Assembly (NCBI GenBank): GCA_000091205.1
Contig: AP006497.2
Reading direction: 5' to 3' (one strand)
Length of the DNA: 64,000 nucleotides
Origin: Cyanidioschyzon merolae
Taxonomy: Eukaryota
The position numbers and the translations under genes are program-made. The notes under the pieces were generated by a model. That model saw nothing but the letters and a program-made list of their open reading frames with translations, was not told the DNA's origin and searched no databases. This document shows positions 6,826 through 55,797 of the stretch, one piece after another; position 1 is the stretch's first letter, and every line of letters begins with the position of its first letter.

Positions 6826-7789
6826 GCATTCGCAGACGCAATGGAATGCTTTCCATTGTACGTATTTCTCATCGAATACCGGTATGATGTCCATAACAGT
6901 TGTGCGCTCGTGGATTGCAACTCTTGAATGAGCAAATTCTCCATAGAAATCAATTTACAGGTCTGATTTTTTGCCTCGTAGCTTGGCACTGCATAGCGTC
7001 TATCGGCATGACGCAAGGAGGATGCGTCGTTCGGCGTGATGAAGCCTCGGATAATCGCCGTGTGCTGGTTGAGTATTCGAATCGAGTATGCGCTGGTAAC
7101 CTTGAATGGGTAGTTCCATCGTATCACTGCAAACGACTCTCCGTGCAGCTCTGGTTATATGGTATCGCAAGCAACCGGCATTCGACCAGGTATCTCAGAG
7201 TACACAGCGGCTGCCTGCACAGAATCCCGAGACGTTACGGAACGCTTTCCCCAGGTGTGATCTTTTGTGCCTGATCCATGCGATACTGGGTAGCGCTGGC
7301 TGGCGCTCAAAGCACGAAACTGCATCGATAATGACGATTCCCTTCACTTGATCCATATGGTGCAATGCCCTGATGATTTGCGCCCAAGGTACGAATCTGC
7401 TTGTCATGTAAGCCTTGATGGATGTACATGAGCAGATGCGACACCTGTTCGAGGCAGGTTCTCCATCGAGCGCTCGAGAACACGAGCGGGTCAAGGCGCA
7501 CTCTGGTCGGCAATGGAAACGACCCGAAGGGTTCGCTCAATGCTGGACCCTTCTTGAATCCGACATGACTTGTAGATCATGGATACGGTATACGGAATTG
7601 CACAAGGTACCACATTGCGTGGCGCAAACGTCAGATTCTTCAACTTATGAGCATATCGTCATTACTGCCCTTCTGCGTTGGCACGCTGAGCATAAAGTCG
7701 TATTGAGCACGCGTGCCACGACGCCTGTGCACTGCTTGGTCGGTAGATCCGGCTCGTTCAAGGACGCGTGTATCGACATCAGGCGCTCT

Positions 7790-13115: not shown

Positions 13116-14491
13116 GCGAACGATAGAACGTACGGAACGACCAGTACATCAGAAAGGAACTATAAGTTATAGAACCTGGAGACAGGGTGCAACAGCATGA
13201 TGGACGCTTTTTCGATCAACAATATCCACCCATCCGGCAATCTGCGATCCACGGTGAATGGGAATGTTTTGTCAGACCAGAAAAATCGTCCACCGGCACT
13301 GGAACCGGGCGCAGGGGCATATGCTCCGAGCCAGTGTTCAGTTCTCGAAGCGCTTCTGAACACGAACGTGAAGCGTTCTCAATAGAACTCTGGCGTTCAA
13401 ATGAATAGGTTCAATCAACGCAACGTCCGTGCACGACGGATCTTGCACGGCGACTCAGAATGATGACGACACAGGCCCGACGGTTCCTGCGAACCGGGCC
13501 GGGCACGAGCATGAGCACCCCACGTCCGTCGTCACTGAGCCCCGTTTGTTGTAGGGCATCGTATTCCAAGAGCGCCAGCCAAGAACGCTTTGCAGCACCT
13601 CTATCCAACCGGGGTATACCGGAAGCTGCTGCCGCAAACTGGTTGTTATGAATGAGGCACCATGGGGGAACAGGTCTCCGTCATACGCGTTATGGACTGA
13701 CGCGTCGGGTTCAATACGCGACTCGCGCTTCGATCCGAGAGCGCATACTGGCATCGGATAGCAGATGTGGAAGCGATTTGCTTTTTCATTCAGTAGAAAT
13801 GTATCTGTTTACGTGAAACGATGAGAGGAGGCGGCAAGAAGCGATCCAACTGGACATACGTGCCTGGTACCATTTTTGGCACAAATGTCCAACAGATGTC
13901 CTCGCGCAACGCACGCATCCATGGAGACACGTGTACCTTTCCGTGTGATTCTCATTGATTTCGAGATGGTGTTCATGCTTCTCGTTGGAAGCGTTGAATT
14001 CTCGTGTAAGTGATAGCGTGGCTGGCTATGCTTCGGCGTTTCAACCAGCCAGTAGTTATGGTTTAGCTTTCGTGCGCAGGTTCTAGCGGCGATCTCTGCA
14101 CATCGGAAAGCTCTGCGCTCCTCCAGCGAGAACCATGTACGGATTCAAGTCGCACTGTCTCGAGTCGGAACGCATGTTTCGTTACAGCAGGCGACGCAGG
14201 GCCAGGCCTAGCTCTCGCGGTTGCTTTGGTTGCGATATACATAGCGAGAAGTGCGCTGGTGTGTCGGTAAGTCTAAACCAGTAGGGGCTCTATCCGCGAA
14301 CGCATCTTTTCTTGGAGCATGCGTCGACCAGCGCATACTTACCGGAGAAGCGCGCGGGTCTTCTCGCGGCCCGTACTCGCACCCATCAGGTCGAAATCGT
14401 GTTACTGGGGCAGGATTCTGCGCCTGCGCAGCACCGTACAGATCCGGTGTTCTGAGTTCCCTCGTCAGGCTCTATGCGGTGCATACGGATG

Positions 14492-17485
14492 CTATGCTGC
14501 AGCGTTTGCAGTCGGTGCCTGCGGTGTCCCAGTGCCCGTCACAGACGCCGAATCCACATTCTGGTCGGTTTCAGCGCGCGTATCGCGCAACAGTGCCCGG
14601 TACAGGCGCCAGAGCGGATACCACCAGTCTGATTCGTCTGGGCTGGAGATATCAACGCCACGAGCTTCCAGGCGACTATACAAACGGGTTGCCGCTCCGA
14701 CACAAACCTCCGGTTTCAGACGGCTCGTGAGAGCCATCCCGGCAGCTTCGGCGAGCGCTGGATTCGCTGGAATATCAGCACGGAAGCCGAGCGCCGCGTC
14801 GATGACGGCATCAAGCAATGCCTCCACACCGTCGCCGGATGTAGCGAAAGCGTATCGAGCGGACAATGCGCTTGCCACCCGGCGAGCGCCATCGTGGCCG
14901 TCTACATCAAACGACATCTGGAGCGCAGCGAGCTCCACCGCAACCCGCTGGCTCAGCGTGCGACGCTCGCGGATGCGCTGATGCACCCAGCGTGCCGCGA
15001 CCGCGAGAATGTCGTTGCCAGTCGACCGGGGCTGGAGGAAAAGGAGAGGAATGGCTTCCATGGCCACTGAGGCTGGTCCAATTAGGATGCGTTGGCAAAG
15101 CGCAAGCACGGCATTATCGCAGACAGCGCGTGCGCGAAGCAGATCCCGGAACAGGTCGCGAACACTGATGCTGAGTGTCTCTTCGGTTTCCATGCCGAAT
15201 GCCCAGCCGCGCCCGAACGCGATGCTCCACAGTGAAAGCAGCACTTCGAGGCCGGTCGTCACGATTTGGGCGTCCTCGTCATGCTGCGCAACATGCCATA
15301 TTGATCGAAACGCTAGATCCCAATGCTCATATGCCGATTGCGGTTCATTGTCAGCGGAGGCGTCGTTTGAATAGCTCGCATGCCACAATACATCGAGAAA
15401 AAGAATTCGACAAACGAGCGACGCCACGGTGGCGGGAATTTTCGCTGACCCAGCTTGGCGCTGGGCCAAGACGATGTAGAGGACCCGTCGCAGGCCATCC
15501 ATCGAAGCGGAGTCTTTCGGCGATATCCACTCGAGCGCGGCGAGCAACTGGTTGCAGCGAGTTTCTGTGCACACGTCTAAAGTGTGCATGCAGCATGTAC
15601 TGAGGAGTTCCTGCAACCGGATAGGGATGCTGTCGCTGTCGTTTTCCGTCCTGTTCTCGAGCGCGTAGAGCGCCCGAACGATCGCCCGCATCGCTTCTAG
15701 GCTCTGGGCATGACGGTGGAACGCGTCCATAAGGAGCGGCTCGATGACCTCTTCATGAGCGTGGAAAGCGTCACTGCAGAGCCGAACAAGCTGTGCGAGG
15801 GCGGCAACAAGCGCCGGATCTGACTGGAACCTGCGCATGAGGCGCGGAAGCGCTTCGCGACATGCTGCAATCAGGAGCGTGCTTGCGACAGCAGGCTGGA
15901 AGGTCCCCTCTGGATTCGTTGAACACCGCGCGCTGGACTCTTCCAGGCACTGGACGCGCTCCGCCACAGCGACCCAGAGACGAATCAGCGCCAGCCGGTC
16001 AGCATCGGTCAACGGCTCCGACCCATCATCTGGTTCTCCTTCCTCCAGTAGTTCCACGTATGCGTTCCAGGTGCAGAGCGCCGTGATGGCTGCATCGTGC
16101 CAGAGCGCCTCACAGACTCGTGTGTAGGAGTTTTGATTTGCCGTCAAGATTAGAAAAACGATTTCTCGTAGCATCGCTTTGGGGGCATGTTCTACCCCGA
16201 ATCGCTGAATATAGGCGCTATTGGCGAGCTCTATGTAGGTGATGGAGAGAGCGCCAGCAGCAGCTCGGACGGGTGCTCTCGGATCCTCGGTAATGAGGTC
16301 TAGTACGCCTTCGAGCTCGGCCTTGCCCAGCCAGTCCGCAGGGAGCAGCGTCTGTGCGAGTCGAATGGCTTGAATTGCAATCTGCTCCTCGCGGTCGCGA
16401 GTCATTTCTACGAGTCGCACACGAAAACGTTGCAAAAACGCCTGCATCGGTACCACATAATTCGGATTGGATACGAGCTGTAAGATAGCATCCAAGGCAG
16501 CGTGCCGAACCTTGCTGTCCTTGTCGTAAATCATCCATCCGAGATACTTGAGAAAGCGATCTTCAAGAAATCGAGCAGGAGCGGAGCGAATCCAGCGGCC
16601 CAGGGCGCTAATGCAATGGAAGCGGATGTCAGCGAAAACGTCACGGTAGCGCTTTGCAAATACCGTCTGAACAAGGTGCTTCACCAGATCCTGCGTGTCA
16701 CTGGTTTGGAGCCGGATTTTCTCGAGTGCTGATCGATTCCGCACGACATTCCGTTGCACGGCAGCAGCCTGATCCTGTAGCGCTCGTTCTACAGCGAGCA
16801 ACCCGTCCACCGTATGGAGCGCTGCAACGACCGCGGCGAGCCGCACCGCTCGCAGACGACTCTCTGTCAGGTAGGCCAGCCATGAGACCCAGGCATCGAT
16901 CAAATCGGAGTCCATCCAGACGGACTCTGGGCAAGTCTGCACAAGCTGCTGGAAACAGGTCTCATATTTTTGCGTAAAGCGACGAGCATCCCGCGTTGTT
17001 GCACTTAGCGGTGGGATGAGAGCTGCACGTCCGAGTTCGCTCTCCGAAATGCGCGGCAAGATCGCCGTACTAAGGGCATCCACGAGTACTTTGGCGTTCT
17101 CGGGGGTAGCTACCCGATCGGGGCCCTCGATGACGCTATCGGCCAACAGTTGAAGAATCTCCGAGCGGCAGCTTGGCTCTTCGGCAAGCGTCACTGGATG
17201 CGCGGCGAGCACAACCAACTCTAACAGTTCGCAAATCGTCCACTTGAAATCCGTACTCGCTCTGCTCCAGAACTCACTCAGTGGCCGACTCAAGTCCGCG
17301 GAACGGAGTCTCAACGCATCGTAGAGGAAACCGCCGCCCGAGTGCACCTGATGGGTGAATGAAGCAGAGCGCGGGCTGCACGGGCTTGTTGTCAGGTCCG
17401 GGACGCGCGTCTGCTCAATAGGTTCTTCATCAGTACGAAGTTGGTGTACCGGATCGACGAGAGCAGCCTCCATCCGTTTCAACAA
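14492..17485 (-). CDS. SCC3: Cohesin subunit SCC3/SA (STAG family), carrying the stromalin conservative domain.
   Basis: ...FAKRYRDVFADIRFHCISALGRWIRSAPARFLEDRFLKYLGWMIYDKDSKVRHAALDAILQLV... matches the STAG SCD block (F-x-RYRD-x-IR-x-C-x-LG-x-W...YLKY-GW-L-D-VR). The rest is helical HEAT/ARM-like sequence. The first ATG is at 17471-17473 (the track start is TTG). Confidence 0.75.
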   Translation of the reverse strand: MLKRMEAALVDPVHQLRTDEEPIEQTRVPDLTTSPCSPRSASFTHQVHSGGGFLYDALRLRSADLSRPLSEFWSRASTDFKWTICELLELVVLAAHPVTLAEEPSCRSEILQLLADSVIEGPDRVATPENAKVLVDALSTAILPRISESELGRAALIPPLSATTRDARRFTQKYETCFQQLVQTCPESVWMDSDLIDAWVSWLAYLTESRLRAVRLAAVVAALHTVDGLLAVERALQDQAAAVQRNVVRNRSALEKIRLQTSDTQDLVKHLVQTVFAKRYRDVFADIRFHCISALGRWIRSAPARFLEDRFLKYLGWMIYDKDSKVRHAALDAILQLVSNPNYVVPMQAFLQRFRVRLVEMTRDREEQIAIQAIRLAQTLLPADWLGKAELEGVLDLITEDPRAPVRAAAGALSITYIELANSAYIQRFGVEHAPKAMLREIVFLILTANQNSYTRVCEALWHDAAITALCTWNAYVELLEEGEPDDGSEPLTDADRLALIRLWVAVAERVQCLEESSARCSTNPEGTFQPAVASTLLIAACREALPRLMRRFQSDPALVAALAQLVRLCSDAFHAHEEVIEPLLMDAFHRHAQSLEAMRAIVRALYALENRTENDSDSIPIRLQELLSTCCMHTLDVCTETRCNQLLAALEWISPKDSASMDGLRRVLYIVLAQRQAGSAKIPATVASLVCRILFLDVLWHASYSNDASADNEPQSAYEHWDLAFRSIWHVAQHDEDAQIVTTGLEVLLSLWSIAFGRGWAFGMETEETLSISVRDLFRDLLRARAVCDNAVLALCQRILIGPASVAMEAIPLLFLQPRSTGNDILAVAARWVHQRIRERRTLSQRVAVELAALQMSFDVDGHDGARRVASALSARYAFATSGDGVEALLDAVIDAALGFRADIPANPALAEAAGMALTSRLKPEVCVGAATRLYSRLEARGVDISSPDESDWWYPLWRLYRALLRDTRAETDQNVDSASVTGTGTPQAPTANAAA

Positions 17486-38156: not shown

Positions 38157-40316
38157 TTGCAACGTAGAGGCGTTCGACGGAAAGCAACTCACAGCTCAGG
38201 AAACGTTGCCCCGCCGCAAGCAGCGCGGCGCAACGGCATCCTCAGACGCAAGGCGTCGGGACTCGGAAACCAAAAATGTTGTTGGTTCGAGAACTCGACT
38301 ATGACTTTTTGGGCCTGGATTGCGCTCACGGGACACAGCGGAATTCATTCGAGGTCGAGTCTGAGAACGCTCCCACGAGAGACAGCGCGAGTACGTAGGG
38401 TGCTGTGGCGGTTGTCGCCTGAACACCCACATCTCGGGCGCAGTGTGTTTACACCATCCCGTACCACGGCGCGTCCGTCAGAAGCGCGTGAGCGACTACC
38501 GCGTAGCGCTTTGCCACACCTCCGCTCAAACTACTCCTTACCTGAAACAGCGATGCTCGGGAGCGGTACTGGACACGGAAGTTCTGATGGAAAGGGAGCA
38601 CCACTACCAGCAACGACGACGACGACGACACACCAGAGTGACGAGCGCCTGCTCACACTCGACGAACTAGTGCTGAGTGCGGGGTTCGCCAGTCGTCTAC
38701 CCGCGGACCCGGAAACTGCAAACTACGTCCGCGTAGTGCGCGGTGCGGCACTTTCGTTTGTGCACCCGTCACCGACCTGGACGGAGCCGGTGCTTGCTGT
38801 CTGGTCAGACAGGTGTGCGCGTGCTTGTCTTGACCTCGAGGTGAGGCCCTCAGAGCGAGACTATGCAGCACGTGTGTTCAGTGGCCTCGCGATGTTGCCC
38901 GGATCGCGACCCTATGCGCAGCGCTACGGCGGACACCAGTTTGGCGTCTGGGCAGGTCAGCTTGGCGACGGTCGTGTCATTGTGTTGGGTGAGTACCAGA
39001 ATCGATGCGGCGAGACCTGGACCTTGCAGCTGAAAGGCGCAGGCAAGACGCCGTTTGCTCGTTTCGCTGACGGGCGCGCTGTCTTGCGCAGCAGCGTGCG
39101 AGAGTTTCTCGCCAGTGAAGCGCTACATGCGCTGGGCATCCCTACCAGTCGTGCGTTGTCCCTTGTGGTCACTGGTGACAAAGTCGTGCGGGACATGTTC
39201 TACGACGGCAATCCACGCGAGGAGCCTGGCGCTGTCGTTTGCCGTCTAGCTCCTTCATGGGTGCGGTTCGGAACGTTTGAATTGGCAACGGACTGGAATG
39301 AGCTGGAGCTTCTTCGACAGCTTGCGGACGATACGATTGTACACCACTACCCGGCATTGCTGGCACATGAGCGTTCTCACGGCAAGCGCACATCCGCAGA
39401 CTCGAGCCGCAGCGCAAGAAATGAAGAGTCCCAGAACCCAATGCCGTATCGAGCGCTTTTACTCCAAGTCGCTGAACGAACAGCTGCGCTAGTTGCCGGC
39501 TGGCAAAGCGTCGGTTTCGTACACGGAGTCTTGAACACCGACAATATGAGTATTCTGGGGATCACCATAGACTATGGTCCGTTCGGCTTCCTGGACGCTT
39601 ACATGCCCGAGTACACGCCGAATACCACAGATCTTCCGGGTCGACGCTATTGTTATGCGTTACAGCCGACCATCTGTTTGTGGAATCTGCTTCAACTAGT
39701 GCGTGCATTCGAGCCGCTCACTGGTACTAATCTCTCGGAGGAAGTGAGTCAGACCTACGAGACCAAGTTTCGCGAAGAGATGTCCGCACGCCTGCGAGCC
39801 AAACTCGGTTTCCAAACCTGGAACTCGGATGCAGATAATGGACTTGTGCGGGACCTGTATGAGCTCATGCGTCAGGATCGAGCGGATTTTACACGCACCT
39901 GGCGAGCGCTGTCCTGGTTAGAGCCCGTTGCTTGTCTACAGAAAAGCGACGCCTCGCTCGAGCCGCTGCTTCGCGTACTCCCAGAGCCGGTTCGAAAGAA
40001 TCCGGACCGACTTGAAGCTTGGCGACTTTGGGTGCAACGTTACGCAGAGCGTACGCTGGCCGAAGACAACTTTGATGGGACTGCACGGCGCAAGCAAATG
40101 CAAGCCGCGTCTCCCAAGTACATTCTACGGAATTACATGGCTCAGGTGGCAATTGAAAAGGCGGAAAATGAACAGGATTTTTCGGAAATCGAGCGACTGC
40201 TCAAGTTACTCGAACATCCGTACGCAGAACAGCCCGAAATGGAGGCACTCTACGATCGGGAGCCACCGACATGGTCCCAGCGCCTTGGAGTGTGCATGAA
40301 CAGCTGCTCTTCCTAA
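38157..40316 (+). CDS. Protein adenylyltransferase SelO (SELENOO/YdiU, UPF0061).
   Basis: HGVLNTDNMSILGITIDYGPFGFLD and GDGRAVLRSSVREFLASEALHALGIPTSRALSLVVTGDKVVRDMFYDGNPREEPGAVVCRLAPSWVRFGTFE are near-verbatim SelO family blocks. The track start is TTG 38157. In-frame ATGs are at 38301 and 38553. The 38157-38552 extension is Arg-rich with no acidic residues, so it could be a mitochondrial presequence. Confidence 0.85.
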   Translation: MQRRGVRRKATHSSGNVAPPQAARRNGILRRKASGLGNQKCCWFENSTMTFWAWIALTGHSGIHSRSSLRTLPRETARVRRVLWRLSPEHPHLGRSVFTPSRTTARPSEARERLPRSALPHLRSNYSLPETAMLGSGTGHGSSDGKGAPLPATTTTTTHQSDERLLTLDELVLSAGFASRLPADPETANYVRVVRGAALSFVHPSPTWTEPVLAVWSDRCARACLDLEVRPSERDYAARVFSGLAMLPGSRPYAQRYGGHQFGVWAGQLGDGRVIVLGEYQNRCGETWTLQLKGAGKTPFARFADGRAVLRSSVREFLASEALHALGIPTSRALSLVVTGDKVVRDMFYDGNPREEPGAVVCRLAPSWVRFGTFELATDWNELELLRQLADDTIVHHYPALLAHERSHGKRTSADSSRSARNEESQNPMPYRALLLQVAERTAALVAGWQSVGFVHGVLNTDNMSILGITIDYGPFGFLDAYMPEYTPNTTDLPGRRYCYALQPTICLWNLLQLVRAFEPLTGTNLSEEVSQTYETKFREEMSARLRAKLGFQTWNSDADNGLVRDLYELMRQDRADFTRTWRALSWLEPVACLQKSDASLEPLLRVLPEPVRKNPDRLEAWRLWVQRYAERTLAEDNFDGTARRKQMQAASPKYILRNYMAQVAIEKAENEQDFSEIERLLKLLEHPYAEQPEMEALYDREPPTWSQRLGVCMNSCSS

Positions 40317-41430: not shown

Positions 41431-41851
41431 TACCAGTGCTGCTCCCTAAGCGCTATCCTAACCCAGCGCACAGTGTCTTGAACGGTTTTGTGGTACGCAC
41501 TCGGAAACAGTTGGCGTACCAGTGCTGCTCCCTAAGCGCTACCCTAACCCAGCGCACAGTGTCGTTAACGGTTTTGTGGTACGCACTCGGAAACAGTTGG
41601 CGTACCAGTACTGCTCCCTAAGCGCTACCCTAACCCAGCGCACAGTGTCGTTAACGGTTTTGTGGTACGCACTCGGAAACAGTTGGCGTACCAGTACTGC
41701 TCCCTAAGCGCTACCCTAACCCAGCGCACAGTGTCGTTAACGGTTTTGTGGTACGTACTCGGAAACAGTTGGCGTACCAGTACTGCTCCCTAAGCGCTAT
41801 CCTAACCCAGCGCACAGTGTTGTTAACGGTTTTGTGGTACGTACTCGGAAA
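41431..41851. repeat. Tandem minisatellite B: 86-bp unit, about 4.9 copies.
   Basis: Unit taccagtgctgctccctaagcgctatcctaacccagcgcacagtgtcttgaacggttttgtggtacgcactcggaaacagttggcg starts at 41431, 41517, 41603, 41689 and 41775. It lies immediately 5' of, and overlaps, the CtpA-like ORF extension. Confidence 0.95.
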
Positions 41852-43946
41852 CGCTCCAGTGGCCGCGTCAGCGTTCGCTGTCCACCTGTGTGCCAGCCCG
41901 TTCAACGAGTGCAGTTCTCTTTTTGAAGATAGAGGCTTCTTTATGCTTCTATTCCAGTCTACACTGGTTCGAGTTTATGTTGTCCGGAGCCCGCCTCGCA
42001 ACCGACAACTGTGTCTCCGCGCTGACTCGAGTCAAGGACGACACCTCCTGGGAGCACGACCTGCACAGCAGACGACGACGACGACAACAACCACTACAAC
42101 TACAACTGCTGCGGCGTCGAGACCGATAACCAAGCTAACAGTATTGCGAGTACAGCAGCGTTTCTGGGAGCGCCATGGAAGCGCTCCAGCGCTGGCTTGT
42201 TCGCAGAGCCCGTTGCAGCCGCACCTGGGCGTCGGTGCAGAGGCTTGCACCCGGCAACGAATCTCAGACCTCAAGCCGAGCGTCGGTGAGCGCCTCCATT
42301 CAGCCTATTATACACGATTGCGGCAAGCTGTGGCGGTAGTTAGAAACTGGGTTTGTGTTGCAAGCGCGCTTCTCTTTGTCTACCTGAGTACCAGCGACCA
42401 GGTGGCCCTGGCGGCTGCCTCACTCGCCAATGGCATGCCTCAAGACCGTCTGGCTCTGGCAACGAGTACGCCCGTTCCAGATCGCTACCGAATTCTTTGG
42501 GAGCAGGCACTGGACATCATCACGAACCTTCACTACCAACCCGGTCAACATATCCATGCAGCCTCGTTAACCATGCCTTCGCACTTGCCGCCTACGCGTG
42601 CGTCCACGATCCCATGGGGATGCTCTCTGGGAACACGTGCCTCGACCTACGATGCCATTCGGATCCGACTCAGTGAATTGAATGATCCCTACTCACGTTT
42701 CCTGGAGCCGGATGAATTTGAGGCGGAACTGAATCCTTACCGGCGAGCTCGGAAGCTCAGCGGGGTCGGCATCATACCGGAGCGCAGTCCAAAAGGCCAC
42801 GGCACGCTGCGCGTTATAGCCGTTATTCCCGAGTCACCGGCTGAGGAGGCCGGAATCAACCCCGGCGATGAACTCGTTATGATTGACGATATTGTCGTCG
42901 AGCCTTCACCTTTGAACCCGATTCCTGTGACCCCCGATGAAGCGTTGGCGTTGCTGCGCGGCCCAGCGGGTACGCGGGTTCGTCTCACTGTGCGACAAAC
43001 GACAAACTCGTTGTCGTACGCTGATGCATCGCTGCAAGTAGCGTCAGCGTCCACAGCGCCGACCTCTATGATGCGTACATATACATTAACGCGGAGACCG
43101 CTTCTGGTAGCTCCGGCTGTCTACGGCCTTGTCGCCGCGGAGCCCACTTTCGGTTACATTCGCCTCCATACCTTCAACGCCGAAGCGACACGTATCGTCT
43201 TCGAGGCTCTGAACGCATTCAAGAATTCTAGCGATCGTTCGGCAGCGGCTGGTGTTATCCTAGACCTGCGCAACTGCCGAGGTGGCGTCTTCCAGGAAGC
43301 ACTGGTGATTGCTTCGATGTTCATCGCAAACCCCGATGCCGTACTCGTCTACACCGTCGACAGTCGGGGTATCGAGCGCGCACACCGGGTGCGTGACCAG
43401 TGGAACGGTTGGCCTGAAGCTCCTGCTGCCGCTGCTCGTACTCCTCGTACTCCTCCTGAGACGCTCGGGAGCGCGGCGTCGGCCCGGCATCCGCTGTACA
43501 ATGGCCCACTGGTGGTGCTCGTCAATGGTGCCTCAGCTTCCAGTAGCGAAGTGCTTGCGATAGCCTTGCGCGATCACGGACGAGCAGTGCTGTTGGGCAT
43601 GCCAACTTTTGGGAAAGCCCGCATCCAACACTACTTCCCGCTTTTGGACGGCTCGGCGATCGCGCTCACTGTCGGGGAGTTTCTCGGCCCGCAGCACGAA
43701 CGCCTCGCGGACCACGTCGGCTTAGTGCCGCAGGTCTCCTGCAACGCTGCACCCCGGAACTTTGCGCTCCTAGAGAGACACACGCCACCAGATGCCTGCA
43801 TCGCAGAGGCAGCTCAGCTGCTAAGCGAAGAACCCACGGGGTCATCGGCTACAGAGCCGGTGCCGGTCGGTGGCTCCGTGCGGTCTGCGTTCACATCCCG
43901 AAGCAGGTCCACTGAAACGACACTGTTGCCTCGGATCCAAACCTGA
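41748..43946 (+). CDS. Carboxyl-terminal processing peptidase (S41, CtpA/tail-specific protease-like) with a PDZ domain.
   Basis: PDZ region GVGIIPERSPKGHGTLRVIAVIPESPAEEAGINPGDELVMID. S41 catalytic region ILDLRNCRGGVFQEALVIASMF ... VVLVNGASASSSEVLAIALRDHGRAVLLGMPTFGKARIQ (Ser/Lys dyad context). The track start is GTG 41748, inside an 86-bp tandem array. The first ATG beyond the repeat is 41943. Confidence 0.8.
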   Translation: MVRTRKQLAYQYCSLSAILTQRTVLLTVLWYVLGNAPVAASAFAVHLCASPFNECSSLFEDRGFFMLLFQSTLVRVYVVRSPPRNRQLCLRADSSQGRHLLGARPAQQTTTTTTTTTTTTAAASRPITKLTVLRVQQRFWERHGSAPALACSQSPLQPHLGVGAEACTRQRISDLKPSVGERLHSAYYTRLRQAVAVVRNWVCVASALLFVYLSTSDQVALAAASLANGMPQDRLALATSTPVPDRYRILWEQALDIITNLHYQPGQHIHAASLTMPSHLPPTRASTIPWGCSLGTRASTYDAIRIRLSELNDPYSRFLEPDEFEAELNPYRRARKLSGVGIIPERSPKGHGTLRVIAVIPESPAEEAGINPGDELVMIDDIVVEPSPLNPIPVTPDEALALLRGPAGTRVRLTVRQTTNSLSYADASLQVASASTAPTSMMRTYTLTRRPLLVAPAVYGLVAAEPTFGYIRLHTFNAEATRIVFEALNAFKNSSDRSAAAGVILDLRNCRGGVFQEALVIASMFIANPDAVLVYTVDSRGIERAHRVRDQWNGWPEAPAAAARTPRTPPETLGSAASARHPLYNGPLVVLVNGASASSSEVLAIALRDHGRAVLLGMPTFGKARIQHYFPLLDGSAIALTVGEFLGPQHERLADHVGLVPQVSCNAAPRNFALLERHTPPDACIAEAAQLLSEEPTGSSATEPVPVGGSVRSAFTSRSRSTETTLLPRIQT
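42071..42106. repeat. (ACG)5(ACA/ACT)n tract, encoding poly-Thr in the CtpA-like N-terminus.
   Basis: gacgacgacgacgacaacaaccactacaactacaact. Confidence 0.9.
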
Positions 43947-45308
43947 CCGAGTTGCGCACCCGTTCGGCAGTCTAGAGCATCCGACAGCACCAGGTTCGCG
44001 TAGTGATCAAAACCGCTGAGTTTTCCGCGCACGCACCTGTTCGCGTTCAGGTACACTTGGACGGAATGAAACAGCAACGCTTCGAGTTCCGCAGTATCGA
44101 CCTCGTCTTTTGCCATAAACCAAGCTGATCAACAACCAACACGACGCTGGTCAAATGCTTGGACGCACGCGGGTTTCCCACAGCCTGCCAAGACGCCGTC
44201 GCAGGGTACCGGCAAACGCACTTGTGTGTATGTTGCTGAGTTGCGCGACGTTTCTGTGCATATCCGAAGCAGGAGCAGCAGTAGTTCCAGCCCAGGAAGC
44301 CTTTCGTTTCGACCTTTCAGGAACGTGTAGTGCGCACGTCGTTTTGACGAAAAGTCACCTTCCCTGCGATAACCGACGACTCAACCTGGACTGCAGGGTA
44401 AAGTCGTTGCAGCGCGTTCGGGTGTACGCGCGAGCTCCACGAGTCGCCAGTGAGTGCCTCGGCATACCTCGACCTCGACGGTGTTCGTTGAACCCAGAAC
44501 ACGAATTCGGGAGCTTGGTTGCCTCAAGGCGAAAGCGAGCGACAGGCACTTCTCGGAGTCTGTGGGTGTTTCTGGTGCCTATCCCAGTCTGTGGCCGGAG
44601 TGTGTCCGTTCGTCCAGTTCAAGCGGAGGTGTACCGAGTGTCTTGAGCAGCGTGCGGACGTCTGGGTGTCACGGTGGCTCTCTGTGGTGCGTCCTGCCTT
44701 CACGGGCGTGATTCAGACTGCACCCGCGAGCATGCGCTACTCACTCGTGCTGCAAACGCCCGCCACCTGCGCAGTGTTGCAGGCGAGAGACAGCGGAACC
44801 TACCGCTATGCGACTTGGCGTTAGGTGCGTAGGTATATGCGTTTATGCGACGGAAGCAACGTTGTTGTCGAGTACCTGCCCGCGGGTTATCTGGGACCGT
44901 GTTGAGATTCACGTTTACGCATTCTCTATATATGCTGCCTTTAGATGAAGCTGCCGCCTAGCCTAGCCAAGCGCATCTCTTCCTAGGCACCAGAACCCGC
45001 TCTGGTCCAAGATATGCACGCGTATCCATTCCCGGCTTTTTGGTGACGCTCAGGGAGTATTCCTTGTCCGGCTGGGTATGCCACTACTTGATCAGCGCTT
45101 TCAAAAGCAGATGCCAGCCCCGCGCACCAGCGCGTCCAGCGTTTACATTACAGGCTTGCACACCGCCGCTACCCGCTGGTATCATACGCCGGTTTGTCTT
45201 CATCGTGAAGCTCTTCGTTCCACGACTTGCTCTACCAGAGTCTCCGATGCCGCGGTAGCATGTCTGGGAATGCTCTACCTCCGGCAAACGCACACACACT
45301 CACTCCTT

Positions 45309-45329
45309 CACAACAACAACAACAACAAC
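45309..45329. repeat. (CAA)6-7 microsatellite.
   Basis: cacaacaacaacaacaacaacc. Confidence 0.9.
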
Positions 45330-45362
45330 CAATGGGAATCGAACAAGGCACAGATGCACGCC

Positions 45363-48300
45363 TCAGGTGCCGCTTTCAAGTGCATCCAATCCACGAACGA
45401 CGTGAACGGACATGTGGACTTTGGTGACGCACGAGTTCGCCAACAGGTGCACTGCTCGCCAAACAACATCCGGCTCGATGTCGCCCAGGTGTTGTACTGG
45501 TCGCCGCAACGCCAGCGCATGCGTATGAGAGAGCAGCAGCGACGGGTGCTGCTGCAGCTCCGAACGGATCCTCTGCAGCGCCATGAGTCGACAAGTGTGG
45601 CACGAATGATCGCCCTGGTCAGCAACGTGTCCATCTTGGGGCGTCTGCTGCTCAGGCGAGGCATCGACGGTATCGCGATCCGCATAGAGTTGGAAGTAGC
45701 CGCGGTAGAGGTGTGCATCCAGGGCCGTGCGAAATGCCTCATCCTCAATGGCTTCCGCGACGCTCAACAGACCCACTACGGCTGCGGGTTGAGAGCCGGT
45801 GATCAGATTCGGCTCTCGATAGTACTTGTGGCGATTGGCAATCACATTTTCGTTGAAAACGGGCGCCCGTGAAATAGCTGTCGCTGTGAAATGCGAAAAC
45901 TCAGCGATGCCGTAGAAGAACAGGGGGTTCGTCGTTCCCGTCTGCAGGTACAGATCATTGAGTACACGTGACCACGGCAGGCCTGCTGGTATTTTCTTGG
46001 AGCCAGCATTGGTACCCTGAACCCCGGTAGGCAATTGCACGCCGGGCGCCTCGTATGATACGTAAAAGTCGGGTACAGCACCCTGGGGCATGCCCAGGAA
46101 CGCGACACTCGAGAGGTACCGTCCACGCACCGTGCGGTAGTACTCGGCTGGTGGCGCCTCAGGCGCTTCCGCTGGGCTTTGCTGCTGATTGCTGGTCCCG
46201 TCGGACGTCGCTGGAGACGTTGCTGCTGGCAGTTCACCGGTCAGCGTACAATACGCAGTCCCGTGAACGATGATGGCTTCACCCATGGTCTCCGGCGGAC
46301 GACCGTCCACGGTGCCCAGCTCAAAACCCGCAATATAGTCTTGGGAATCGATTGGAATCCGCGACAGCGCCTCTACGGACGGTATCTTACCCTCGATGAG
46401 GTTCCGCACGGAGCCCAGCGCTCGTGCTCGGCTGCCTGGCGGTTGTGGTGCATGTGGATGCAGGTTGTAGACCTTGACCGGGCTCTGGTTGGAATCCGGA
46501 CTGGACTCCAGCGGCTCTACCAGGAGTTTCTGGGAGGCGATGCAACCGAAAAAGTCGCCACTGCGCAGTAGCTGCAAAAGATATTCGCGATCCTCAGTTG
46601 ACAACGCGGCGCTCGCGGCAACATCCTCCGTTTCGCCCGCGGATTCAGCGTCCATCCGCTGACGCTGTCGATGCACCATGATAAAGCTGTCGAAAACCTG
46701 GCGGGCAATCCGCATCTCTTCGGGTGAGATGAGTCCGTCGTTGTCCAGGTCAAAGATACTCAACAGCTCCATGTCGCTAGCAGTGAGCGCCTCGGTAGGC
46801 AGGTATTCGGCAATCAGACGCAATACTGGTACCCGGTTGCTTTCCACGGTGGCGTACTCGGCCTTGAGCTCAGGGCTCTCGACCAGATCGATGAGGAACG
46901 AGTGCCGGGCATCGCCTCGTTGCTGTGCAGCAAGAGCGGACTCCAACGCCGCCGGTGCTTCCGCTGGTCGCTGGACGCGGGCGAAGCCCATACGGTACGC
47001 CTGGGCGAGTCGCTGCAAGTCTGGAAGGATGATTTCGTCGCCAGCGACGCCAGTATTCCCAAAGCGTACCCGTCCCATAACGCCGTTGCGGAGGACAATC
47101 ACGACAAGGTTATCGAGGCCCTGCTGCAGGGCAGTTCCAAGTTCCTGTTCAGCCATTTCGAAACCGCCATCGCCAGTGATGAGGTAGACGACACCCTCGC
47201 TTTTGCGTCTCTTCAGCGAGACGCCCATCGAAACGGCAGCCGGAACCGCGTACCCCATACTGCCCATGTTGATGCTGGAAAGCAGACGCGTTCCCTGCCC
47301 ATCGAAACAGAGGCAGAGACCTGCCCAGATGGTAACATCTCCGATATCCACAACCACAACATCGTCTGGACCAAGTTTCGCGGACAAGGCGGTGAGCAGG
47401 TGGCGCGGATGACAGAAGCCGCGTACCTCATCATCGCCCTCGTCAGCGGTATCGTCTGTGTCCAGCATGGAGCGCCTGCCAGTGACCATAGCGTGTGGCG
47501 TTTTGCTCAAAACTGCAGCACGACGCGGCGATGAAGGCAATGAAGCTTGACGCTCACGCCATTCACCGTCTAAAAAGTACTTCCAGAGCCGGCTCGAGTA
47601 GTCCCGGGCCTGTTGAGGGCCCGGCGGCAGCATGCGCTTTGATTGCATCTCCCGCACGCTCGCTGTTAGTGCGCTCAGCAGGGCCTCCAATTCAGGATCG
47701 ATAAGCATACACTCCACATGGTAGTAGACCTGGAGGCGCGTAGCCAGTGTATCGTCTACACCGAATACTCGGACCTGCTGTTGACCAGTAGAATCGAGCA
47801 CGACTGGATCGCAACGATCGACGCCTATCGCCAGAATACACTCGGCAGTGCTGACGAGGGCCCGCGGCGCTGCCATGCCGGGGTTCCCAAAGATCCCGTC
47901 AACACCGAGTACCAGCGGGTGATGCTCATCGACGGCACCCTTGGCGTCCAGTGTGGTAATCACCGGCGCACAGAGCGTTTCTGCGAGTTTCAAAATCGTA
48001 CTCGAGCAACGAGCCTGTGCTGCACGCAACCCGCACAGAATGACGACGCGATGTCCCAGCAGAAGGCGTCCAGCGTGCTCCACGGAAACGGCAGCGCAGC
48101 GCGGTACCTCGGCAATATGAAAGGGAAGGCGAGCCAGGGCGCTCTCGTCTGAGGGCGACGTCTGCACATCTACTGGTATCGCCAGATGTGCTGCTGTGCT
48201 TCGCTCCAGGGCGAAGCGGATAGCCGAGTCCAGCAGAGAAAGGAAGCGATCGGCAGTCATGGGGGCCTTGGCAAACTGGACGCCTGCTCCGTGCATCAGT

Positions 48301-48695
48301 TGTGCTGTTCGGGTGTCCTGGAAGCCCTCGTGTCCGATGTTACTCCGCGACACGAGGCCGCTGAGTAGGAGCACCGGCACAGAGTCCGCAAGCGCATCCA
48401 CCATGCCGCACACGGTGTAGGCGGCACCCGGACCCGAGGTGGTAACGCACACACCCAGCTTCCGATAATACTTGGCGTATGCAGATGCGGCAAACGGTGC
48501 GGCAGTTTCGTTTCGAACGAGAACCCAGTGCAGACGTGGATGCTGCACAATCGCTGTGATAAGAGGACTCGCAGCTGCTCCGTGTCCACCGAACACGAGC
48601 TCCACGTTTGCCGCCGCAAGCCGGTCTGCAATCAGGTTCGCAATGGTGTACGTGCTACCACGACTCGCTGGCATCTTGGAGGTGGTACTATTCAA
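45363..48695 (-). CDS. Multidomain protein: acetolactate-synthase-like ThDP-dependent enzyme (three domains), then a canonical EF-hand, then an uncharacterised C-terminal region of about 350 aa.
   Basis: N-terminal TPP_enzyme_N block VELVFGGHGAAASPLITAI...TTSGPGAAYTVCGMVDALADSVPVLLLSG. C-terminal ThDP motif YLITGDGGFEMAEQELGTALQQGLDNLVVIVLRNGVMG (GDG-x24-N). Then SIFDLDNDGLISPEEM, a 12-residue EF loop (D1 D3 D5 G6 I8 E12). No stop codon between the modules. The first ATG is at 48672-48674. Confidence 0.7.
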   Translation of the reverse strand: MNSTTSKMPASRGSTYTIANLIADRLAAANVELVFGGHGAAASPLITAIVQHPRLHWVLVRNETAAPFAASAYAKYYRKLGVCVTTSGPGAAYTVCGMVDALADSVPVLLLSGLVSRSNIGHEGFQDTRTAQLMHGAGVQFAKAPMTADRFLSLLDSAIRFALERSTAAHLAIPVDVQTSPSDESALARLPFHIAEVPRCAAVSVEHAGRLLLGHRVVILCGLRAAQARCSSTILKLAETLCAPVITTLDAKGAVDEHHPLVLGVDGIFGNPGMAAPRALVSTAECILAIGVDRCDPVVLDSTGQQQVRVFGVDDTLATRLQVYYHVECMLIDPELEALLSALTASVREMQSKRMLPPGPQQARDYSSRLWKYFLDGEWRERQASLPSSPRRAAVLSKTPHAMVTGRRSMLDTDDTADEGDDEVRGFCHPRHLLTALSAKLGPDDVVVVDIGDVTIWAGLCLCFDGQGTRLLSSINMGSMGYAVPAAVSMGVSLKRRKSEGVVYLITGDGGFEMAEQELGTALQQGLDNLVVIVLRNGVMGRVRFGNTGVAGDEIILPDLQRLAQAYRMGFARVQRPAEAPAALESALAAQQRGDARHSFLIDLVESPELKAEYATVESNRVPVLRLIAEYLPTEALTASDMELLSIFDLDNDGLISPEEMRIARQVFDSFIMVHRQRQRMDAESAGETEDVAASAALSTEDREYLLQLLRSGDFFGCIASQKLLVEPLESSPDSNQSPVKVYNLHPHAPQPPGSRARALGSVRNLIEGKIPSVEALSRIPIDSQDYIAGFELGTVDGRPPETMGEAIIVHGTAYCTLTGELPAATSPATSDGTSNQQQSPAEAPEAPPAEYYRTVRGRYLSSVAFLGMPQGAVPDFYVSYEAPGVQLPTGVQGTNAGSKKIPAGLPWSRVLNDLYLQTGTTNPLFFYGIAEFSHFTATAISRAPVFNENVIANRHKYYREPNLITGSQPAAVVGLLSVAEAIEDEAFRTALDAHLYRGYFQLYADRDTVDASPEQQTPQDGHVADQGDHSCHTCRLMALQRIRSELQQHPSLLLSHTHALALRRPVQHLGDIEPDVVWRAVHLLANSCVTKVHMSVHVVRGLDALESGT

Positions 48696-50640: not shown

Positions 50641-52245
50641 ATGCTGACGTCAGCAGCTGACGACTTGTCGTCGGGATATCGGGAGGTAAGGGCGGAGCTG
50701 GGCGAAGCCTTTCGGAGTGGGGCAACACGCTCGCTTCGTTGGCGTGCAGCGCAGCTGGAAGCCCTGAAGCAGGCGCTAGTGGAACAGGAGCGCGCAATCA
50801 TCGCGGCATTAGCTGATGATCTCGGGAAGAGTGCTGAAGAGAGTCAGCTTACCGAGCTACAACCCGCACTCCAGGAACTAGCGTTGGCGCTGGGGAACCT
50901 GAAGCTCTGGGCTGGGCCCCGCACGGTAGAACCCTGCTTAGCACCCAAGTATCTGGCGCCGTGGTTCTGGTTGCAACGTGTTTGGCGCGCGGTGCTTCCT
51001 CGAGTACTGGGCGGTGGCAACCCGCCGGTGGCAAGTTACGGCGGCGTAGCACTGGCGACGATACTGGAGCGTCGCTGGGTCGTTCCTGAACCACTGGGCG
51101 TGGTGCTGATCATCACAGCCTGGAACTATCCTCTACTGCTTGCGATTTGGCATATGACAAGTGCTATCGCCGCTGGGAACTGTGTCGTCTTGAAACCAAG
51201 TGAACGTGCTCCTGCAACAGCAAAACTGCTGGCAGAGCTGGTGCGCACCTATCTCGATGCTCGCTGCATCCGAGTCGTGCTGGGCGATGCCAGCACTGTT
51301 CGGCGTCTGCTTCATCTGGATACCGAGTGTCCGGCGGATGTTGCGTTCCGCGTTTGGGCACAGCAGCGCCCTTTTGATGCGGTGCATTTCACGGGCGGCT
51401 GGAGGATTGGGCGTGAAATCGCACGCGCTTGTGCGGCCTACCTGATACCGTGCACGCTCGAACTGGGCGGTAAGAATCCGCTTGTGGTGGACTGTGCATC
51501 GCTGTCCGAGCGAGACTTGGCTCGGGTTGCCCGAACGACCGCATGGGCCAAGTTACTGAACGTGGGTCAGACGTGCATCGCCCCGGATTATGTGGTTCTA
51601 TGCGGTGCAGACCGGGCACAGGAGGCGTTCTTCATAGAAGAGATGTGGAAATCGATTGAAGCATTCTACGGGAGGCCAGTGGAAAACAGCACGACCTTCC
51701 CACGGATCGTGAGCAAGGCACATACCGCCCGTCTGGCGGACCTGCTCCAACAAAGCCGTGGTGAGGTTGTGTTCGGTGGAACCCACCGAGAGAATGACTG
51801 CTTTTTCACGCCGACCATTGTGCGCAATGTGACTCTGGATGATGCGCTGATGGCGGAGGAGATTTTCGGGCCGATACTGGTTGTTCTGCAGCCGTGTGCT
51901 GGTACCGAACAAGCGCTCGAGGTGATCGGGAGTCTACCATCTCCGCTGGTAGTCTATCTAATGTCTCGTGACGCTGCTGTGGTGCAGCGTTTTGAACGGG
52001 CATCCACCTCTGGATCGCTTGTCGTGAATGATCTGCTGGGTCAGGTAATCTCGCCGGGTCTTCCGTTTGGCGGGGTCGGCGCTTCTGGATACGGCAAGTC
52101 CAAAGGTCAAGCGGGGTTCGATGCGTTCTCGAACCTCAAGAGTGTCCTCTGCAAACCGATATGGATAGAGCGAATAGCGAGTGATCGCTACCATCCACTA
52201 ACCGCTACCAAGATCAGTCGTTTTCGTCGCTTAATCGCGCTCTGA
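50641..52245 (+). CDS. Aldehyde dehydrogenase, class-3 / fatty-aldehyde dehydrogenase type.
   Basis: ATG 50641 checked. Glu-motif LELGGKNPLVVD and catalytic Cys motif VGQTCIAPDYVV, plus FTGGWRIG. The length of about 530 aa fits ALDH3 with a C-terminal hydrophobic tail. Confidence 0.85.
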   Translation: MLTSAADDLSSGYREVRAELGEAFRSGATRSLRWRAAQLEALKQALVEQERAIIAALADDLGKSAEESQLTELQPALQELALALGNLKLWAGPRTVEPCLAPKYLAPWFWLQRVWRAVLPRVLGGGNPPVASYGGVALATILERRWVVPEPLGVVLIITAWNYPLLLAIWHMTSAIAAGNCVVLKPSERAPATAKLLAELVRTYLDARCIRVVLGDASTVRRLLHLDTECPADVAFRVWAQQRPFDAVHFTGGWRIGREIARACAAYLIPCTLELGGKNPLVVDCASLSERDLARVARTTAWAKLLNVGQTCIAPDYVVLCGADRAQEAFFIEEMWKSIEAFYGRPVENSTTFPRIVSKAHTARLADLLQQSRGEVVFGGTHRENDCFFTPTIVRNVTLDDALMAEEIFGPILVVLQPCAGTEQALEVIGSLPSPLVVYLMSRDAAVVQRFERASTSGSLVVNDLLGQVISPGLPFGGVGASGYGKSKGQAGFDAFSNLKSVLCKPIWIERIASDRYHPLTATKISRFRRLIAL

Positions 52246-54687: not shown

Positions 54688-55797
54688 GTGCCGATTTACA
54701 GGGCGCGCGTTCATGCTGCGGCAGGTGAGAGCGCTTTAGAACAATCCTCGTGTGCTGCGTCCGAGGTCCTGCGTTCGAGTCGTGGACAGCGTGCGTCAAT
54801 GACAGAGTGCTACACACTAACACGGCGCGTAGTCCGTGCACACAACCATGAAAACGACGCCTGGGTGATCGTTCGTGGTGGTGTCTATGACGTGACGGGG
54901 TTCTTGCGGTACCACCCGGGCGGGCGGGACGTCCTCTTGAAGCGTTTGGGCGAGGACGTCACCAGTGTTATGAACGGCGAGCTCAAAGGTGGTCACGAGC
55001 ACTCCAGTGCGGCGTATAAAATTCTGCAGCAGTACTACGTAGGCCCGCTGGCTGACGCGGACGCTTCTCCCGCAGAGGCAGCCGCCCTAGACGGCACGCT
55101 GGACGAGCACGGTAGACCGCTGGTCGACTTTAGTAAGCCGCTTCTGGACCAGGTTGGTAAGCTTGGGGATAAGTATCACCGCTGGGTGCATTCTTTTCCG
55201 ACCAGCGACCATCATGTGGCCCTTTTCGCGAACCCGACGCTCGAGTCACTGACAAAGTGTCCCTGGTACGTGCCGCTAGTGTTCTGGATTCCGATCTTTG
55301 TCTGCGGGCTGTGGTTTGTGTTTGCGCGCCTCGGTTGCTCGTTTGTTCGAGATTTCCTACCGTTCACGACGTTTGGCTATATATTTTGGATGTTCTTCGA
55401 ATATCTGTTACATCGATATGTATTTCACGTGCGGACCGGGACGTACTGGTCGAATATCTTTCATTTTCTTATTCATGGACATCACCACCTGGCGCCGATG
55501 GATTATGATCGACTCGTGTTTCCACCGATTCCCGCAGCGCTCGTCTCGATGCCGGTATGGCTGACTGCACCTCGAGTGTTTGGTCTCGTGCGCGGACTGT
55601 GCTTCCTTTTTGGATTCGGTGTTGGGTACCTTCAGTACGACATGACACACTTTCTGGTGCATTATGGAACGCTACGTACGGGGTTCTTAGCCGCTCAGAA
55701 ACGGCGGCACATGATACACCATTTCAAAGCACCAGGGGCGAATTTTGGTATCAGTGTTCCCGTGCTGGACATTGTGTTCGGGACATTGCACCGGTAA
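54688..55797 (+). CDS. FA2H: Fatty acid 2-hydroxylase (FA2H/Scs7-type): N-terminal cytochrome b5 fused to a di-iron fatty-acid hydroxylase.
   Basis: Cyt-b5 HPGG motif (VYDVTGFLRYHPGGRDVL). Four His boxes (HRYVFH, HGHHH, HYGTL.../HMIHHFK) in a 4-TM hydroxylase domain. The first ATG is 54799 (the track start is GTG). Confidence 0.85.
   Translation: MPIYRARVHAAAGESALEQSSCAASEVLRSSRGQRASMTECYTLTRRVVRAHNHENDAWVIVRGGVYDVTGFLRYHPGGRDVLLKRLGEDVTSVMNGELKGGHEHSSAAYKILQQYYVGPLADADASPAEAAALDGTLDEHGRPLVDFSKPLLDQVGKLGDKYHRWVHSFPTSDHHVALFANPTLESLTKCPWYVPLVFWIPIFVCGLWFVFARLGCSFVRDFLPFTTFGYIFWMFFEYLLHRYVFHVRTGTYWSNIFHFLIHGHHHLAPMDYDRLVFPPIPAALVSMPVWLTAPRVFGLVRGLCFLFGFGVGYLQYDMTHFLVHYGTLRTGFLAAQKRRHMIHHFKAPGANFGISVPVLDIVFGTLHR

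Follow-up and report, generated by a model that had tools for sequence, protein, structure and literature searches.

Introduction

The gene described here lies on the minus strand of a 64,000-nucleotide stretch of Cyanidioschyzon merolae DNA (contig AP006497.2; hereafter the window), and its closest described counterpart is the bacterial acetoin pair AlsS/AlsD (BudB/BudA). This pair consists of a three-domain thiamine diphosphate (ThDP) enzyme, acetolactate synthase (ALS), and a protein with the zinc-type fold of alpha-acetolactate decarboxylase (ALDC). ILVBL/HACL2, HACL1 and oxalyl-CoA decarboxylase (OXC) belong to the same three-domain ThDP superfamily. The ALDC active site comprises three histidines (His191, His193 and His204 in B. 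subtilis), Glu62/65, Thr55/58, Arg142/145 and Glu251/253 (PMC9090609).

EF-hands are likewise fused to catalytic or transport domains in several metabolic proteins, where they are proposed to couple metabolism to Ca2+. Mitochondrial glycerol-3-phosphate dehydrogenase and the external NAD(P)H dehydrogenases are of this kind. The Ca2+-regulated mitochondrial ATP-Mg/Pi and aspartate/glutamate carriers are further examples (PMC6283063, PMC4250520). A first-pass annotation of the window, made from the sequence alone, knew of no ALS-, ILVBL- or HACL-family enzyme with an EF-hand, and we found none either: a search of an incomplete literature collection gave no description of a natural ALS-ALDC fusion, of a ThDP enzyme or ALDC with an EF-hand, or of the divergent ALDC-like family described below. 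We propose, with a probability of roughly 0.6, that the window gene encodes a three-module enzyme of the Cyanidiales, in which an ALS-like ThDP module, an EF-hand linker and an ALDC-fold domain would together make acetoin or a related acyloin.

Results

A single conserved coding unit

The minus-strand open reading frame (ORF) runs without interruption through 45363..48695 and counts 1110 codons from a TTG (48695), where the mechanical call begins. The first in-frame ATG follows 7 codons downstream (residue 8, 48674) and is probably the start codon, as expected in a eukaryote (Table 1). Residue numbers below follow the 1110-amino-acid (aa) TTG numbering, from which 7 is subtracted for ATG numbering. 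The ATG-initiated product is identical to a database protein (P0001) found on many hot-spring metagenome and Logan contigs. Among named proteins, the nearest are two hypothetical ones from red algae, the first from Cyanidiococcus yangmingshanensis (KAK4530569.1, 1108 aa, ~72% identity), the second from Cyanidium caldarium (KAK4536499.1, 1064 aa, 58% identity); in UniRef, a truncated model of the first is named 'EF-hand domain-containing protein'. With such relatives, the window (GC content ~56%) is taken to be nuclear DNA of a Cyanidiales alga.

The four Cyanidiales proteins align collinearly from end to end, and each of the three parts (ThDP, linker and C-terminal) has a dN/dS of ~0.08-0.26 (Nei-Gojobori, against two orthologues). 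Because the orthologues are collinear throughout and dN/dS is low in every module, we conclude that the gene is one conserved coding unit, and the earlier reading of a single frame spanning all modules was correct. Artificial merging of two neighbouring genes, whether by faulty sequencing or assembly or by an overlooked intron, is extremely improbable, as is decay of the downstream part into a pseudogene. Nothing was found to support such an artefact beyond the TTG start of the mechanical ORF, which the nearby ATG accounts for. Three points count against it: at least three other Cyanidiales, each assembled independently, and many metagenome contigs show the same continuous architecture; dN/dS is far below 1 in each module; and distant fusions were recovered from unrelated samples. 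The gene is also overlapped by several ORFs of 130-264 aa, antisense to it or in another of its frames (for example 45078-45872 on the plus strand); these are unsupported and are probably by-products of GC-rich coding sequence.

Table 1. Positions of the gene, its modules and candidate functional residues, and of neighbouring genes in the window
Feature	Position	Strand	Residues (aa)	Basis or remarks
Probable coding sequence	45363..48674	-	1103 aa long	ATG 48674 to stop 45363-45365; identical to P0001; collinear orthologues; purifying selection throughout
ThDP N-terminal (pyrimidine-binding) domain	48312..48647	-	17-128	Pfam PF02776 TPP_enzyme_N, 1.2e-28
Cofactor-activating Glu63 in 'VRNETAAPF'	48495-48515	-	61-67	'RNET' aligns with 'RHEQ' of catabolic ALS (PDB alignment)
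ThDP central domain	47817..48056	-	214-293	Pfam PF00205 TPP_enzyme_M, 2e-14
~100-aa insertion between central and C-terminal ThDP domains	47376..47678	-	~340-440	Alignment gaps and conserved blocks
ThDP C-terminal (diphosphate/Mg-binding) domain	46926..47348	-	450-590	Pfam PF02775 TPP_enzyme_C, 1.3e-20
Eukaryote-specific linker module	46473..46874	-	608-741	Homologous to P0106 linker (E 5e-13)
Canonical EF-hand loop DLDNDGLISPEE	46716-46751	-	649-660	PS00018-type pattern match
Second, degenerate helix-turn-helix 'LLRSGDFF'	46548-46571	-		No Ca2+ ligands
Divergent ALDC-like (ALDC-fold) domain	45366..46472	-	742-1110	Three lineage-specific low-complexity inserts
Thr795 in 'GFELGTV', just upstream of 'TMGEA' (ALDC Thr55)				hhalign; Ser/Thr in 73/82 members
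Glu806 in 'TMGEA' (ALDC catalytic Glu, Glu62 in B. subtilis)	46275..46289	-		hhalign; Glu in 78/82 members
His1057 and His1059 in 'SHTHAL', proposed Zn ligands (ALDC His191/His193)	45513..45530	-		82/82 and 81/82 members; extended hhalign
His1083 in 'RAVHLL', proposed third Zn ligand (ALDC His204)	45441..45458	-		82/82 members; extended hhalign, strand topology in model
SelO ORF	38157-40316	+		Poly-threonine run (TTTTTTT...) in N-terminal region
S41 (Ctp-type, PDZ-containing) peptidase gene	41748-43946	+		Poly-threonine run in N-terminal region
LSm gene	43814-44116	-		Converges on S41 peptidase gene
Aldehyde dehydrogenase (ALDH)	50641-52245	+		Upstream of fusion gene
Cytochrome-b5/fatty-acid hydroxylase (FA2H/Scs7-like)	54688-55797	+		Upstream of fusion gene

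An N-terminal ThDP module of the pyruvate oxidase/ALS type

All three ThDP-enzyme domains seen at first pass are present: the Pfam models TPP_enzyme_N, TPP_enzyme_M and TPP_enzyme_C match in this order with 99.6, 53.9 and 74.2 bits against gathering cutoffs of 26.8, 30.4 and 21.9. Enzymes of this type are recognised by a GDG-X(24-27)-N(N) motif that binds ThDP and Mg, and by a cofactor-activating Glu in the N-terminal domain. The motif, described earlier as GDG-x24-N, is indeed found (aa 508-538, 47082-47174), but its spacing is X26 and it reads GDG-X26-NG; the activating Glu is present as Glu63. The best PDB sequence matches of the module are catabolic ALS, PoxB, BbmA and pyruvate oxidase (E ~1e-30 to 1e-33), and HACL/OXC chains match more weakly (E 1e-16 to 1e-22) in this comparison set, which does not contain ILVBL. 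By these sequence features the N-terminal module is assigned to the POX/ALS (DC-family) type of ThDP enzymes. An HACL-like lyase was considered and ruled out, as HACL/OXC structures score far below ALS and POX.

Between the central and C-terminal domains, the module carries an insertion with the strongly conserved blocks YSSRLWKYFL.GEW, KTPHAMVTG and EGDDE.RG.CHP. This insertion is common to the eukaryotic relatives of the ThDP clade and is missing from bacterial AlsS.

A divergent ALDC-like family at the C-terminus

The last ~370 aa have no match in Pfam or NCBIfam, and the family profile likewise matched no PDB sequence. The first-pass statement that some 350 C-terminal residues are without recognisable motifs (both of its quoted strings are present) is thus correct for these collections. 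When 1.84 billion cluster representatives were searched with a profile, 111 matched, ~95 of them to aa ~742-1110 through three collinear blocks. Standalone proteins of 260-275 aa, covered over their full length, make up most of these ~95, and the region occurs both alone and fused. The 82-sequence alignment of this family, on which the structural model and all residue counts are based, has two invariant His residues and a nearly invariant His, Glu, Tyr, Tyr and Pro. Four of the 82 members weakly match Pfam PF03306 (AAL_decarboxy; best E 0.019), the only Pfam family weakly matched by more than one member.

A model of the domain computed from this alignment reached a pLDDT of 85.6 and a pTM of 0.85; a prediction for the C-terminal 478 aa from the four orthologues reached a pLDDT of 41 and was not used. 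When the model was compared with the PDB by Foldseek, the top 14 matches were all alpha-acetolactate decarboxylases (E 2.6e-7 to 1.6e-4; TM 0.67-0.75, normalised to the target). Local hhalign of the family against an ALDC alignment built from PDB sequences gave an E of 2.4e-4 and paired 'GFELGT..MGEA..HGTAY' with 'FGIGTF..LDGE..DGEFY' of ALDC. A greedier extension, of low confidence, aligned the H-x-H and one further His with the zinc ligands of ALDC, the hairpin between them exceeding that of ALDC by 13 residues. Global hhalign, as well as hhalign of the C-terminal fragment alone, yielded nothing significant. By its modelled structure, the C-terminal region has the ALDC fold. It represents an unannotated, divergent family that is invisible to Pfam and NCBIfam, and it was identified because deep profile search, structure prediction and gene context were combined.

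The residues expected at an ALDC active site have proposed counterparts in the family (Table 1). In the model, His1083 sits on the next beta-strand after the lengthened hairpin, and the conserved HxH...H pattern suggests that the domain may bind Zn.

The first-pass annotation had offered the C-terminal region as a candidate new domain and pictured the protein as either a Ca2+-regulated carboligase or lyase or a ThDP enzyme tethered to a novel effector or targeting domain. Taken together, this would make the region a non-catalytic module attached to a Ca2+-regulated carboligase. The missing Pfam, NCBIfam and PDB sequence matches agree with such a view, but the highly significant match to the ALDC fold, the invariant metal-site residues and the standalone homologues encoded beside AlsS in bacteria do not; furthermore, the window protein has no transmembrane-like or membrane-anchor-type hydrophobic segment and no N-terminal extension. 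We consider an effector or targeting role very unlikely. Although Pfam is silent, structure links the region to a known domain with a known partner, an ALDC fold next to AlsS, rather than to a new one.

Standalone homologues take the AlsD position in bacteria

In five of six bacterial contexts, the gene for the standalone homologue abuts or faces a gene for a ThDP enzyme of ~550 aa. In Legionella londiniensis, the start of the homologue (WP_058529649.1) coincides with the final base of a gene for a ThDP enzyme of 551 aa; in GCA_021772315.1 the homologue comes first and shares 10 bases with the ThDP gene; on an ENA contig the ThDP gene is followed by the homologue; and on two more contigs the two are divergently transcribed with 140-620 bp between them. 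The sixth context, a short 6-kb Chlamydiae contig carrying the homologue, has no ThDP gene. The AlsS equivalog test was run on two of the bacterial partners, those of Legionella and GCA_021772315.1, and both exceed the NCBIfam cutoff (761 and 790 against 510 bits). Because the family's genes pair with ThDP genes that pass AlsS cutoffs, we conclude that the standalone family fills the AlsD position of an alsSD-type pair in bacteria. The other neighbours, a housekeeping pyruvate dehydrogenase complex and an Ahr-like alcohol dehydrogenase, are neutral evidence, and small ORFs beside the bacterial genes have no homology to each other or to the eukaryotic linker. A word-indexed homology search with the family alignment gave one match. 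Breadth among named bacteria is thinly sampled, a scan of GTDB genomes with a single-protein query having recovered only L. londiniensis itself.

The bacterial loci with the family (L005, L007, L009 and L010-L012) come from L. londiniensis, a Chlamydiae metagenome-assembled genome and other contigs; P0171 and P0173 are recorded alongside these loci. The family is found in dinoflagellate and algal sequences too, and the dinoflagellate transcript P0101 encodes a member. Some of the contigs with the standalone family also carry genes for ankyrin-repeat, SET-domain or Sel1 proteins, as is common in bacteria that live inside amoebae. This distribution may point to an exchange of genes between protists and the bacteria living within them. 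At L009, the ThDP gene beside the ALDC-like gene is called in two pieces (6302-6994, N domain; 7029-8000, M and C domains), and the contig is a metagenomic one of low coverage, so that a frameshift, a sequencing error or a pseudogene may lie behind the split.

The EF-hand linker

The two catalytic modules are joined by a linker that runs from 'PELKAEYA' through a helix, the EF-hand loop, a long helix and an acidic low-complexity stretch to a degenerate helix-turn-helix. The sequence DLDNDGLISPEEM fits a 12-residue EF-hand loop, with ligands at positions 1, 3, 5 and 12, Gly6 and a hydrophobic residue at position 8. A PROSITE PS00018-type pattern of this kind arises in 0.2% of shuffles of the window protein. 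All four Cyanidiales orthologues retain it at this site, and their substitutions, for example DLSGDGMLTPEE, stay compatible with it. The canonical loop is also present in the distant fusions P0073, P0074 and P0181, and genuine EF-hand proteins match the linker part of the profile in the profile search. The second motif ('LLRSGDFF' / 'LRTGQLF') follows the loop after ~36 residues in P0074 and P0106 and after 61 in the window protein, the longer spacing being due to the acidic insert; the predicted model of this region reaches a pLDDT of only ~40.

It is also possible that the EF-hand is a vestigial helix-loop-helix, serving the two catalytic modules as a structural spacer or docking element without sensing Ca2+ and leaving the enzyme constitutive, and we would put the chances of this just short of even. 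The linker has a single canonical loop, whose partner motif ('LRSGDFF') is without Ca2+ ligands; the Pfam models EF-hand_1/5/6/7 reach no more than 17-19 bits, where their cutoffs demand 25-30; P0106 and P0180 (His at position 3) and P0063 (Gln at position 12) have a degenerate loop; and P0125 has no linker module at all. These points favour a purely structural linker and equally count against a calcium role in the enzyme that we propose. On the other side, all six characteristic positions are kept across Cyanidiales proteins of 58-72% overall identity and again in the three distant fusions, a chance occurrence of the pattern is rare, and dN/dS in the linker is ~0.12. The textbook EF-hand of the first-pass annotation therefore stands as a conserved canonical pattern but falls below the thresholds of the EF-hand models, and its Ca2+-regulated enzyme is possible, with a weaker case than first stated given the lone sub-threshold loop and the fusions in which it is degenerate or absent. 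We suggest that the linker may bind Ca2+ and may regulate the enzyme.

Related fusions and alternative partners of the ThDP clade

The combination of the same ThDP clade, the linker and the ALDC-like domain was found in P0106 and P0180 (987 aa), P0181, P0074, P0073 and P0063, which derive from unrelated samples. The ThDP part of these distant fusions is 36-38% identical to the window module, and their linker 33% (E 5e-13). One further protein close to the P0106 fusion, P0182 (827 aa, JGI/Logan), turns into Arg/Ala-rich nonsense after ~residue 500, and its annotation as 'pyruvate dehydrogenase (quinone)/pyruvate oxidase' looks to be based on a model damaged by a frameshift in the assembly or the gene call.

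Members of the same ThDP clade in Tetraselmis and other protists carry a cupin-like domain and not an ALDC-like one. The cupin is C-terminal in P0185 (Tetraselmis sp. GSL018, 906 aa, annotated 'acetolactate synthase') and P0011 (MMETSP, 914 aa), and N-terminal in P0006, P0007 and P0186 (819-870 aa); it is recognised by the motif 'LHAHPN.E...G' and by weak Pfam matches to Cupin_7 and Cupin_2. This suggests that the clade has alternative second-step partners.

Discussion

Proposed function

In the mechanism that we propose, the ThDP module would decarboxylate a 2-oxoacid, most likely pyruvate, and ligate the resulting hydroxyethyl-ThDP to a second pyruvate, giving alpha-acetolactate or a close alpha-hydroxy-beta-keto acid. 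The C-terminal domain, acting as a Zn-dependent enzyme of ALDC fold, would then decarboxylate this product to acetoin or a related acyloin. The two modules would be held together by a linker of ~130 aa in which one canonical EF-hand is paired with a degenerate one. The gene would have arisen by fusion of a two-gene alsS/alsD-type pair that is unfused in Legionella, Chlamydiae-like and other bacteria, and the linker would be a eukaryotic addition that may tie the activity, or the coupling of the active sites, to cytosolic Ca2+. What is shown here is the architecture with its conservation, the ALDC fold, the conserved metal-site residues and the bacterial pairing with genuine AlsS; the substrates and products, like the binding of Zn and Ca2+ and any regulation, are inferred.

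Several further observations weigh against this proposal. Identity between the ThDP module and the AlsS partners of bacteria is no higher than 23-26%, and the module falls below every curated NCBIfam equivalog cutoff: its best score is to the biosynthetic acetohydroxyacid synthase large subunit (TIGR00118, 188 against 538 bits), and the catabolic AlsS equivalogs NF006378 and TIGR02418 give 168 against 510 and 137 against 551 bits. Since the module scores as well with pyruvate oxidase and PoxB as with ALS, its carboligase reaction can only be inferred. Pfam PF03306 misses the window domain even at E<=10, and the placement of the His triad depends on the low-confidence alignment extension together with a collinear fold match. 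The position aligned to ALDC Arg142/145 is Thr in 41 of 82 members and never a conserved Arg, with a Lys or Arg four residues downstream in 63 of 82; in the E. cloacae ALDC this Arg points away from the active site (PMC9090609). The tail Glu251/253 of ALDC has no reliable alignment to the family, many members of which are acidic near the C-terminus (...LDALESGT in the window protein). Finally, the cupin partner in sister proteins means that the product of the ThDP clade may not be plain acetolactate.

These points bear on a second interpretation, with the same architecture and different chemistry, in which the modules act on substrates other than pyruvate and acetolactate. A longer 2-oxoacid or aldehyde acceptor could lead to another alpha-hydroxy-beta-keto acid, or an oxidase- or lyase-type ThDP reaction could be followed by Zn-dependent decarboxylation, isomerisation or hydrolysis. 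We regard this as unlikely, if far from negligible, and favour the ALS-ALDC chemistry.

A more far-reaching version of the acetoin proposal appears doubtful to us. It would make the protein a Ca2+-gated, substrate-channelling eukaryotic 'acetoin synthase', in which the EF-hand linker would respond to calcium as a switch, docking the ALDC-like Zn domain at the active site of the ThDP module, and the acidophilic alga would divert pyruvate to a neutral product upon Ca2+ signals. The large ALDC-like family shared by protists and amoeba-associated bacteria (Legionella, Chlamydiae) would then imply inter-domain gene transfer.

As for location, some ten residues separate the ATG from the start of the ThDP fold, which leaves no apparent transit peptide, and the enzyme might tentatively be placed in the cytosol. 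In red algae, the housekeeping ilvB/ilvH are encoded by the plastid genome, and in bacteria alsSD curbs acidification by yielding a neutral end product. We speculate that the fusion has a non-biosynthetic, overflow or fermentative role in this acidophile, which would fit both of these facts.

Should the proposal be correct, ALDC-dependent acetoin formation, held to be bacterial, would exist in eukaryotic algae as one bifunctional protein, and an EF-hand would for the first time be known as an integral part of a ThDP enzyme/decarboxylase pair. Some 100 representatives of 50%-identity clusters, now 'hypothetical' and including those of Legionella and Chlamydiae, would gain a function as ALDC-like proteins encoded beside alsS. 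It would also link Ca2+ signalling to overflow or fermentative pyruvate metabolism in an extremophile, and a thermoacidophile ALS-ALDC fusion would be of practical interest, as engineered pathways to acetoin and 2,3-butanediol use both activities.

Neighbouring genes

The ALDH and hydroxylase genes upstream of the fusion gene are reminiscent of a fatty-acid alpha-oxidation set. Their adjacency recurs in Cyanidiococcus-like contigs (L002-L004) and not in Cyanidium (L001), and is probably plain synteny; a fatty-acid alpha-oxidation cluster with an HACL-like lyase was ruled out, the adjacency being lost in Cyanidium. On the other side of the gene, the coding 3' ends of LSm and S41 overlap by ~133 bp in the window and in a Cyanidiococcus-like contig (L003, 14375-14677 against 14545-16458), and by only 4 bp in Cyanidium (L001, 13500-13733 against 13730-15430), an unusually tight gene packing. 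The mechanical SelO and S41 ORFs open at TTG/GTG, and the true starts are likely to be downstream ATGs.

Comparison with known systems

Compared with HACL1, ILVBL/HACL2 and oxalyl-CoA decarboxylase, the window ThDP module lies closer to ALS, PoxB and pyruvate oxidase, whose PDB matches reach 1e-33 against the weaker values for HACL/OXC chains in a set without ILVBL. The Zn-containing PTD012/C11orf54 (PDB 1XCR), of related fold, is structurally less similar to the C-terminal domain than the ALDCs are, and has no known association with ThDP enzymes. Canonical ALDCs (PF03306; PDB 4BT2, 5XNE, 6INB, 5YHO, 1XV2) share 8-14% identity with the window-domain family. They are ~235-260 aa long, against ~270 aa for the standalone relatives, with fewer inserts and a hairpin between the second and third His that is 13 residues shorter, and they have the Arg142/145 that is replaced in the family. 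EF-hand-regulated metabolic proteins have multiple, well-scoring, terminal EF-hands, in contrast to the one canonical loop that lies between catalytic domains here.

The AlsS/AlsD pair remains the nearest parallel, as the His triad, the catalytic Glu and the Thr/Ser are shared with the predicted domain and bacterial homologues of that domain stand beside enzymes that pass the AlsS threshold. Unlike AlsS/AlsD, the window gene encodes a single eukaryotic polypeptide whose modules are separated by an EF-hand linker. Its ThDP module differs from AlsS in forming a distinct clade of low identity, with a 100-aa insertion and no equivalog reached, and its decarboxylase-like domain differs from AlsD in being too divergent for PF03306 and in having no conserved Arg. 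The component activities, ALS and ALDC, are well known, and the fusion with an EF-hand and the divergent family appear to be new.

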